Below are positions 36,527 through 36,566 of a stretch of 64,000 nt of DNA, piece after piece. The DNA is taken from NCBI RefSeq assembly GCF_003334255.1, contig NZ_QOWU01000001.1; one strand, 5' to 3'. Positions within the stretch are counted from its first letter, which is position 1. Each line of letters opens with the position of its first letter. The stretch is from Escherichia coli (GTDB lineage: Bacteria; Pseudomonadota; Gammaproteobacteria; Enterobacterales; Enterobacteriaceae). Under the pieces are notes generated by a model. It saw nothing but the letters and a program-made list of their open reading frames with translations, had not been told where the DNA came from and ran no database searches. Made by a program: the position numbers and the translations under genes.

Positions 36527-36566
36527 GCTAAGGTTGAAGGGGCGTTCCAGCCCCTTCAACCTTAGC
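36527..36566. other. Perfect 16-bp inverted repeat abutting the yabP stop codon
   Basis: GCTAAGGTTGAAGGGG (36527-36542), 8-nt loop CGTTCCAG, CCCCTTCAACCTTAGC (36551-36566); no clear U-tract on the minus strand, TTATTCT on the plus strand. Confidence 0.6.

Follow-up and report, generated by a model that had tools for sequence, protein, structure and literature searches.

The perfect palindrome that lies between rluA and djlA in the stretch of Escherichia coli DNA analysed here (64,000 nucleotides, hereafter the window) is very probably a rearrangement scar at the broken end of an ISEc13-like remnant, with any effect that it has on termination being incidental at most. As shown by the alignment to ISEc13, the left arm and the loop of the palindrome read as truncated ISEc13-like transposase coding sequence, and the right arm reads as an inverted duplicate of the left arm. 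For the way in which this arose we infer template switching as the mechanism and a single event as the scenario, with the order and the number of the steps being reconstructed likewise.

The palindrome, its two arms and the IS remnant

The palindrome itself is confirmed as real. It reads GCTAAGGTTGAAGGGGC-GTTCCA-GCCCCTTCAACCTTAGC and consists, according to the repeat finder, of two 17-bp arms that are 100% complementary and are separated by a 6-nt spacer. The earlier note, which had been made from the letters of the window and had described a perfect stem of 16 bp with a loop of 8 nt, was thus right about the hairpin and its place and has to be corrected in the sizes. Folded as RNA, the palindrome gives -37.0 kcal/mol on the plus strand and -36.7 kcal/mol on the minus strand, with z-scores against dinucleotide shuffles of -8.4 and -6.2, respectively, and no sequence among the 200 shuffles reached such a stability. 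No perfect short-range inverted repeat of the 64-kb window is longer, the runner-up having 13 bp. The search for other copies of the 16-mer of the arm, which the note had proposed, found no second copy in the window with up to three mismatches allowed. In Rfam, searched at permissive E-values, nothing but noise was obtained, the top match over the stem being a plant miRNA model with 12.1 bits against a gathering score of 160; searches of the literature on yabP/yabQ/EspY1 and on ISEc13 turned up no mention of the hairpin. Other short-range inverted repeats of the window are an AT-rich 33-nt overlapping palindrome at 11838-11897 (76% complementary), a 19-nt pair with a 2-nt spacer at 10573-10612 (84%) and, at 53606-53673, a cluster of inverted repeats around CAATATTGAAA with arms of 12-16 nt. 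The coordinates of the features that are discussed below are collected in Table 1.

Table 1. Features of the rluA-djlA region, in window coordinates
Feature	Position	Strand	Basis or context
Low-GC islet (IS remnant, palindrome and espY1), ~1.5 kb	36160..37694	.	rluA stop to djlA stop
ISEc13-like IS4/Tn5-family remnant, ~88% identical to ISEc13, ending after ~353 nt	36196..36548	+	
Degenerate left terminal inverted repeat CTGCCTCTTGTACATAAAT (ISEc13: CTGTCTCTTATACACAAGT)	36196..36214	+	Alignment to ISEc13
Hairpin followed by T-run, from IS left end	36209..36230	+	50 nt past rluA stop; sole strong terminator-like site downstream of rluA
Transposase N-terminal (DNA-binding domain) pseudogene, two frameshifts	36372..36548	+	RefSeq, ISEc13 alignment
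Perfect palindrome, 17-bp arms and 6-nt spacer	36527..36566	.	Junction of IS remnant and espY1 3' end
Left arm, ISEc13-derived coding sequence, codons A-K-V-E-G-A	36527..36543	+	ISEc13 alignment, transposase reading frame
Spacer GTTCCA (ISEc13: GTACC)	36544..36549	+	ISEc13 homology to 36548; A36549 beyond
Right arm, exact reverse complement of left arm	36550..36566	+	Repeat finder, ISEc13 alignment
EspY1-type T3SS effector / pentapeptide-repeat gene (yabP-yabQ in K-12), intact, 278 aa	36567..37403	-	ORF; TAA abuts right arm

In the window the genes follow one another in the order rapA and rluA (both on the plus strand), the palindrome region, djlA (minus strand) and lptD (plus strand). The DNA next to the palindrome, which had been taken for a region free of open reading frames, is in fact an IS-transposase pseudogene, according both to the RefSeq annotation and to the alignment with ISEc13. 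RefSeq places here an 'IS4/Tn5 family transposase DNA-binding protein' pseudogene (36372-36550, plus strand), frameshifted and without its C-terminus, and on the minus strand it places yabQ/yabP or 'T3SS effector EspY1'. When positions 36240-36600 were compared by BLASTN with plasmids, ISEc13 was matched at 88.7% over 36240-36548 in 40 or more records, coming from Salmonella, E. fergusonii and E. coli, and all of the plasmid alignments stop at query position 309, which is window position 36548. With the annotated ISEc13 copy on pEF03 as the pairwise reference, the alignment passes in order through the left terminal repeat, of which 15 of 19 positions match the ISEc13 left end, the end-proximal hairpin and, at 36372, the ATG of the transposase gene; the identity then continues through GCTAAGGTTGAAGGGGCGTTCC, after which only random similarity follows. 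Two insertions shift the frame relative to ISEc13, one of 4 nt at 36418-36421 and one of 1 nt at 36502. After correction of the frame, the remnant peptide matches the ISEc13 transposase, whose N-terminus is MVLSDCYSWANEQFGHARLGDPRRTRRLVSLASSLAQHAGLSIVKSSQSTAQVEGAYRLMRNP, at 43 of 63 residues (E = 1e-25). The ISEc13 transposase itself matches NF033590 and NF049926, the family used by RefSeq for the pseudogene, while the reconstructed 64-aa remnant peptide taken alone stays above the E < 0.01 threshold in NCBIfam. Since the homology stops at 36548, no right end is present and the reading frame is shifted twice, we have here a remnant rather than a copy of the IS.

For the reference element on pEF03, the left end lies at 1954-1972 and the right end at 3501-3519, with a flanking 9-bp duplication that has one mismatch (GGATAAGTA / GGATAAGCA). 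We take the left end of ISEc13, CTGTCTCTTATACACAAGT, to be close to the Tn5 outside end, and its right end is presumably identical to the Tn5 inside end (CTGTCTCTTGATCAGATCT).

The end of the homology falls inside the palindrome, 2 nt past its centre of symmetry (36546|36547), and the two arms differ accordingly in their relation to ISEc13. The left arm is identical to ISEc13 at 15 of 17 nt, and its A-K-V-E-G-A corresponds to A-Q-V-E-G-A, residues 50-55 of the ISEc13 transposase, within the conserved AQVEGAYR motif. Over 36549-36566 there are 5 matches to ISEc13 in 18 positions, and in the transposase frame the right arm reads Q-P-L-Q-P-stop, with an in-frame TAG, where ISEc13 has R-L-M-R-N-P. 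As expected of a template-switch duplication, the right arm reproduces the left arm in reverse complement without a single deviation in its 17 positions, and the ancestral state inferred from ISEc13 is non-palindromic. The palindrome is therefore not native to a working element, because the right arm replaces the YRLMRNP codons and adds the TAG.

Distribution and variation of the islet

The palindrome belongs to an islet whose GC content (39-47%) is lower than that of its flanks (52-58%). Among 5426 complete E. coli genomes, all of which have rluA and djlA, the islet is present in 2081 (~38%). In the islet-free genomes (~62%) the stops of rluA and djlA are 116-149 bp apart with one or two REP elements between them, and the two points at which the homology to the window breaks are the stop codons of rluA (36159/36160) and djlA (about 37695). 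Over the 481 nt surrounding the hairpin, the window has 100% identity with K-12 strains and 95-99% with many others.

The conservation of the palindrome was followed with a query of 58 nt (36512-36569) in the complete E. coli genomes. It is matched in 2072 genomes, a count that leaves out 9-14 islet-bearing genomes without a full match to the query; of the matches, 2008 show no difference, 63 show one or two, and the strain with a conversion tract, described below, shows four. In all 2072 genomes the palindrome is one locus, the two places at which it matches being the two strands of the same palindrome. The sole recurrent variant seen is T36546C in the loop, which differs by E. coli lineage. 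With the remnant-specific 37-mer used on metagenomes, all of the 24 contigs found have the palindrome, 21 of them in identical form, two with the loop variant and one with a T>C change in the right arm that is uncompensated. In a scan of one genome per GTDB species, the palindrome occurs in one contig alone, JAIJJM010000692.1, which is labelled as a Collinsella sp. MAG; this contig of 1646 bp consists of E. coli djlA-espY1-IS remnant-rluA DNA and is a binning contaminant. Wherever the palindrome was found, in genomes, metagenome contigs or the misbinned contig, its surroundings are those of the window. An allele from before the truncation or before the duplication was found neither in the 2072 E. 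coli genomes nor in the 24 metagenome contigs nor in the GTDB species representatives.

The arms thus hardly vary, although their invariance does not exceed that of the flanks to a significant degree. Among eight divergent islet haplotypes the flanking remnant has ~0.06 variable sites per nt, so that about two would be expected in the arms, where none is observed, a deficit that is not significant. Since the arms show no variation, they show no covariation either, and the conservation argues neither for nor against selection on the structure.

A natural control is provided by strain Z1323CEC0014 (NZ_CP148426.1). All of its 24 diagnostic sites in 36377-36530 are of the ISEc13 type, while the sites at or below 36361 and at or above 36541 are of the window type, and judged from this pattern of sites some 155-180 bp of the remnant have been overwritten by gene conversion from a genuine ISEc13 copy. 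The tract removes both frameshifts, giving an N-terminal reading frame that is open up to the palindrome, and it stops within the left arm, where it changes A36530 to C; with the right arm unchanged, a mismatch results. Of the two arms, then, only the left one was reached by the conversion, which means that to recombination it counts as IS DNA, and the right arm as DNA foreign to the IS.

On the other side of the junction the gene of the effector varies as well. In K-12, a 31-nt deletion in 15-nt tandem repeats splits it into yabP and yabQ. In O157-type alleles, 14 nt are missing near the 3' end, which places the stop at 36577 rather than at 36567, and 60 nt of repeats are missing too. A hairpin 'immediately after the yabP stop', as the note had put it, is therefore an allele-specific arrangement: it holds here, where the minus-strand stop abuts the stem, and it fails as a general rule, the O157-type stop being 10 nt further away. 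To see whether the junction had cut off the C-terminus of EspY1, homologues were searched for, and all of those obtained were E. coli variants of this locus, with lengths of 233-286 aa. The 15-nt tandem repeats (36700-36830 and 36616-36667) encode pentapeptide units, GATPD/GANPD, with KGVATEEVAT near the 3' end, and their copy number varies among strains.

Transcription and termination around the junction

Two hairpins of the region bear on transcription. The first one, at the left end of the remnant, is followed by the T-run TTTTTTG (within 36209-36236), where ISEc13 has AAGTCCCCGAATCCGGGGATTTGTTATTTC, a G>T change in the window having extended the run to six. It thus appears that in islet-bearing strains rluA uses an IS-derived terminator, while islet-free strains have the REP elements there.

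The second one is the palindrome itself. Ten of its 17 pairs are G-C and its loop has 6 nt, so that it has the GC-rich stem and the loop of 3-8 nt of an intrinsic terminator, and in the consensus scan it is terminator-like on the plus strand only, where its tail is TTATTCTG (UUAUUCU). The plus-strand tail UUAUUCUG has 5 U in 8 nt and passes the scan, and that of the minus strand, AGUAGCGU, fails. On the yabP strand, as the note had already observed, a U-tract is missing, the tail there being AGUAGCGUGGG. It is noted that UUAUUCU on the plus strand is the complement of the final codons of espY1 (GAA TAA). On the plus strand the palindrome with UUAUUCU is in our view plausible as an intrinsic terminator, which would keep transcripts that begin in the remnant, or that arrive from rluA by read-through, from continuing antisense into espY1. 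On the espY1 strand the most that the hairpin would do is to make RNA polymerase pause or to shield a processed 3' end.

These expectations can be compared with published 3' ends of MG1655, where the palindrome has the converted coordinates 59280-59319. In the curated Term-seq list of Adams et al. 2021, no entry is named yabP, yabQ or rluA and none lies at 5926x-5928x or 5931x-5933x. The absence says little, because the rluA terminator is missing from the same list as well; low expression could explain it. The Rho table of Adams et al. 2021 gives a termination region at MG1655 60116 (+), which is antisense to rluA and corresponds to about window position 35730 on the minus strand. Without bicyclomycin there are 280 reads in the upstream 800 nt (59316-60115) and 19 downstream, and with bicyclomycin 278 and 66, respectively (Adams et al. 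2021). The reads at 59316-60115 thus show that RNA of the yabPQ strand is present directly beyond the hairpin, Rho ending it ~0.8 kb later. On this strand, then, either the hairpin terminates inefficiently or a promoter lies just beyond it. The Rho region at 60116 also implies an antisense transcript across the IS remnant and the 3' part of rluA, the promoter of which could be read-through from espY1/yabPQ or an outward promoter in the remnant.

The alternative that weighs most against a scar is that selection has shaped the hairpin primarily for the regulation of espY1/yabP, as a U-tract-independent terminator or a stabiliser of the mRNA 3' end, with the IS overlap secondary. The very stable fold, the start of the hairpin directly past the stop codon in K-12-type alleles and the identity of the 58 nt in 2008 of 2072 genomes would all suit such an element, and hairpins such as REPs are known to stabilise 3' ends (see also bioRxiv 10.64898/2026.03.23.713779). 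The left arm and the loop, however, are transposase coding sequence, the distance from stop to hairpin varies between alleles, and the invariance of the arms, with ~2 polymorphisms expected and 0 observed in eight haplotypes, is not significant, while uncompensated arm changes exist both in Z1323CEC0014 and in a metagenome contig. Nor does the transcription fit, the espY1 strand having no U-tract, 280 published direct RNA-seq reads falling in the 800 nt past the hairpin, Rho-dependent termination following ~0.8 kb downstream and no curated 3' end lying near the stem. We thus consider this alternative rather unlikely.

For the readings that the earlier note had offered this means the following. 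A U-tract-independent terminator of yabP is disfavoured by the yabPQ-strand RNA beyond the hairpin, the Rho-dependent end downstream and the absence of a curated 3' end by the stem. A terminator of a plus-strand transcript fits the anatomy best, with the transposase pseudogene upstream and the UUAUUCU tail, and it has no mapped 3' end on its side. The third reading, a target of a protein or of recombination, reverses what the arms suggest, namely that the palindrome is the product of a recombination or replication error, with the right arm an inverted IS duplicate, rather than a recombination target or a dedicated regulatory module. The interpretation of the note is thus partly supported, and as side effects at the present day none of the three readings was shown wrong.

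Returning to the rearrangement scar, we put forward only tentatively, as a possibility that we judge a good deal less likely than its opposite, that the scar has been exapted. It might then act as a one-sided or collision-type terminator that shields the T3SS effector gene from antisense transcription coming from the IS remnant or rluA and that also caps the effector mRNA. If this is true, a replication accident would have supplied a 3' regulatory module that has been kept in about 2000 sequenced E. coli lineages.

Formation of the palindrome and comparison with known systems

The formation of the scar may be pictured as follows. An ISEc13-like element would have been located downstream of espY1/yabPQ, with its transposase gene reading towards espY1. 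The element would have been truncated ~353 nt from its left end, where DNA synthesis would have switched its template, either by the nascent strand folding back on itself or by its crossing to the complementary strand. The last 17 nt of the retained transposase sequence would then have been copied in reverse and joined at the stop codon of espY1. Joining after 17 nt would need a second switch or an illegitimate join, which would also have removed the remaining IS sequence of at least 1.2 kb.

At the proposed switch point there is inverted microhomology, GCG-TAC-CGC in ISEc13, which becomes GGCG-TTC-CGCC if the parent had the G36541 and T36546 of the window; the parent sequence would thus have been ISEc13-like with GGGGCGTTCCGCC. 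A simple fold-back on this microhomology predicts GGGGCGTTCCGCCCCTTCAACCTTAGC, from which the observed sequence deviates only by an extra A in the loop (A36549). Template switching or fold-back priming leaves just such a trace, an inverted copy of adjacent sequence which begins a few nucleotides past a short inverted repeat that was there before. In E. coli, mutation by template switching at quasipalindromes and inverted repeats is well established (PMC7202029, PMC5941160), and it has been proposed as the source of the excess of long perfect inverted repeats in the non-coding DNA of MG1655 (PMC5941160).

Hairpin chemistry of a Tn5-type transposase was considered as another source and was rejected by reasoning from the IS4-family mechanism, in which such hairpins arise at the termini of the IS; the break here is unlike an end in its sequence.

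The same ingredients might also have acted in two events, with an in-situ template-switch correction of a quasipalindrome in the dead transposase gene and a later deletion that ended at the edge of the right arm. ISEc13 natively has small inverted repeats here, GCG-TAC-CGC and TCAGG...CCTGA, and quasipalindrome correction is well documented in E. coli (PMC7202029), but 13 of 18 positions would have to be rewritten and the deletion endpoint would have to coincide with the arm end, which is less parsimonious than one complex event, and no intermediate allele is seen in the 2072 genomes and 24 metagenome contigs. We regard this order of events as distinctly unlikely. Very improbable, in our view, is a hairpin native to the parental IS, for example a regulatory structure of the transposase mRNA just beyond which the IS broke. 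The left end of ISEc13 does have its own hairpin, equivalent to that at 36209-36230, and elements of the IS50/IS10 type use RNA structures near their ends, but the ISEc13 copies have no right arm, and the replacement of the conserved YRLMRNP codons together with the in-frame TAG is incompatible with a working transposase. Finally, that the palindrome belongs to a family of dispersed palindromes (REP/BIME, MITE or similar), or that it serves a dedicated protein for binding or recombination, is scarcely credible, since, although it is perfect, lies between convergent genes and has REPs in its place in the rluA-djlA spacer of islet-free E. coli, it is unique in the window and single in each genome, has no Rfam family, bears no similarity to the REPs of the empty-site alleles (the comparison with REPs that had been suggested) and was found in the one-genome-per-species scan in an E. 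coli contig only; by copy number and sequence, a REP or MITE identity is ruled out.

If the palindrome is the rearrangement scar that we propose, it would be a naturally fixed, datable de novo birth of a perfect inverted repeat with a known ancestral sequence, and because ISEc13 supplies that sequence, it would show, cleanly and in nature, how a long perfect inverted repeat arises from ordinary coding DNA in one step. As a kind of event it is fairly ordinary, being a tidy new instance of a known one, and it bears on the observation that perfect inverted repeats are over-represented in the non-coding DNA of E. coli (PMC5941160). The 'intergenic' DNA between rluA and yabQ in the well-known K-12 interval is on this basis to be re-read as an ISEc13-like fossil, with the apparent rluA terminator as the end-proximal hairpin of the IS and the palindrome as its broken edge. 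A caution also follows, that ancestry in a mobile element should be checked before such hairpins are called dedicated regulatory elements.

Compared with known systems, the palindrome shares with REP/BIME elements that it is an extragenic palindrome in a 3' UTR position and that REPs occupy the allelic spacer of islet-free E. coli, and it is unlike them in being single-copy, perfect rather than imperfect, IS-derived and without sequence similarity. Like the intrinsic and bidirectional terminators of convergent genes (Ju et al. 2019, cited after bioRxiv 10.1101/2022.10.23.513370), it is a GC-containing stem-loop between convergent units, here rluA with the IS remnant on the plus strand and espY1 on the minus strand, and has a partial U-tract on one strand. 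It differs from typical intrinsic terminators in its longer stem of 17 bp, the espY1 strand without a U-tract, the lack of a mapped 3' end and the RNA beyond the hairpin. To ISEc13 the remnant is alike, at ~88% identity, over the first ~353 nt, with an outside-end-like repeat, the end-proximal hairpin and the transposase N-terminal domain; by contrast, only the left fifth survives, with two frameshifts, and at its end stands an inverted duplication without a counterpart in the ISEc13 copies. The closest likeness in mechanism would be to quasipalindrome template-switch mutations (Ripley model; Lovett-lab assays, PMC7202029; PMC5941160), in which, as here, a new arm is the exact reverse complement of adjacent sequence and, as may have happened here, is nucleated at a short inverted microhomology, whereas the event proposed here, unlike the correction of a few bases in a quasipalindrome, would have coupled the switch to the loss of more than 1.2 kb of the IS and to the joining to unrelated DNA.
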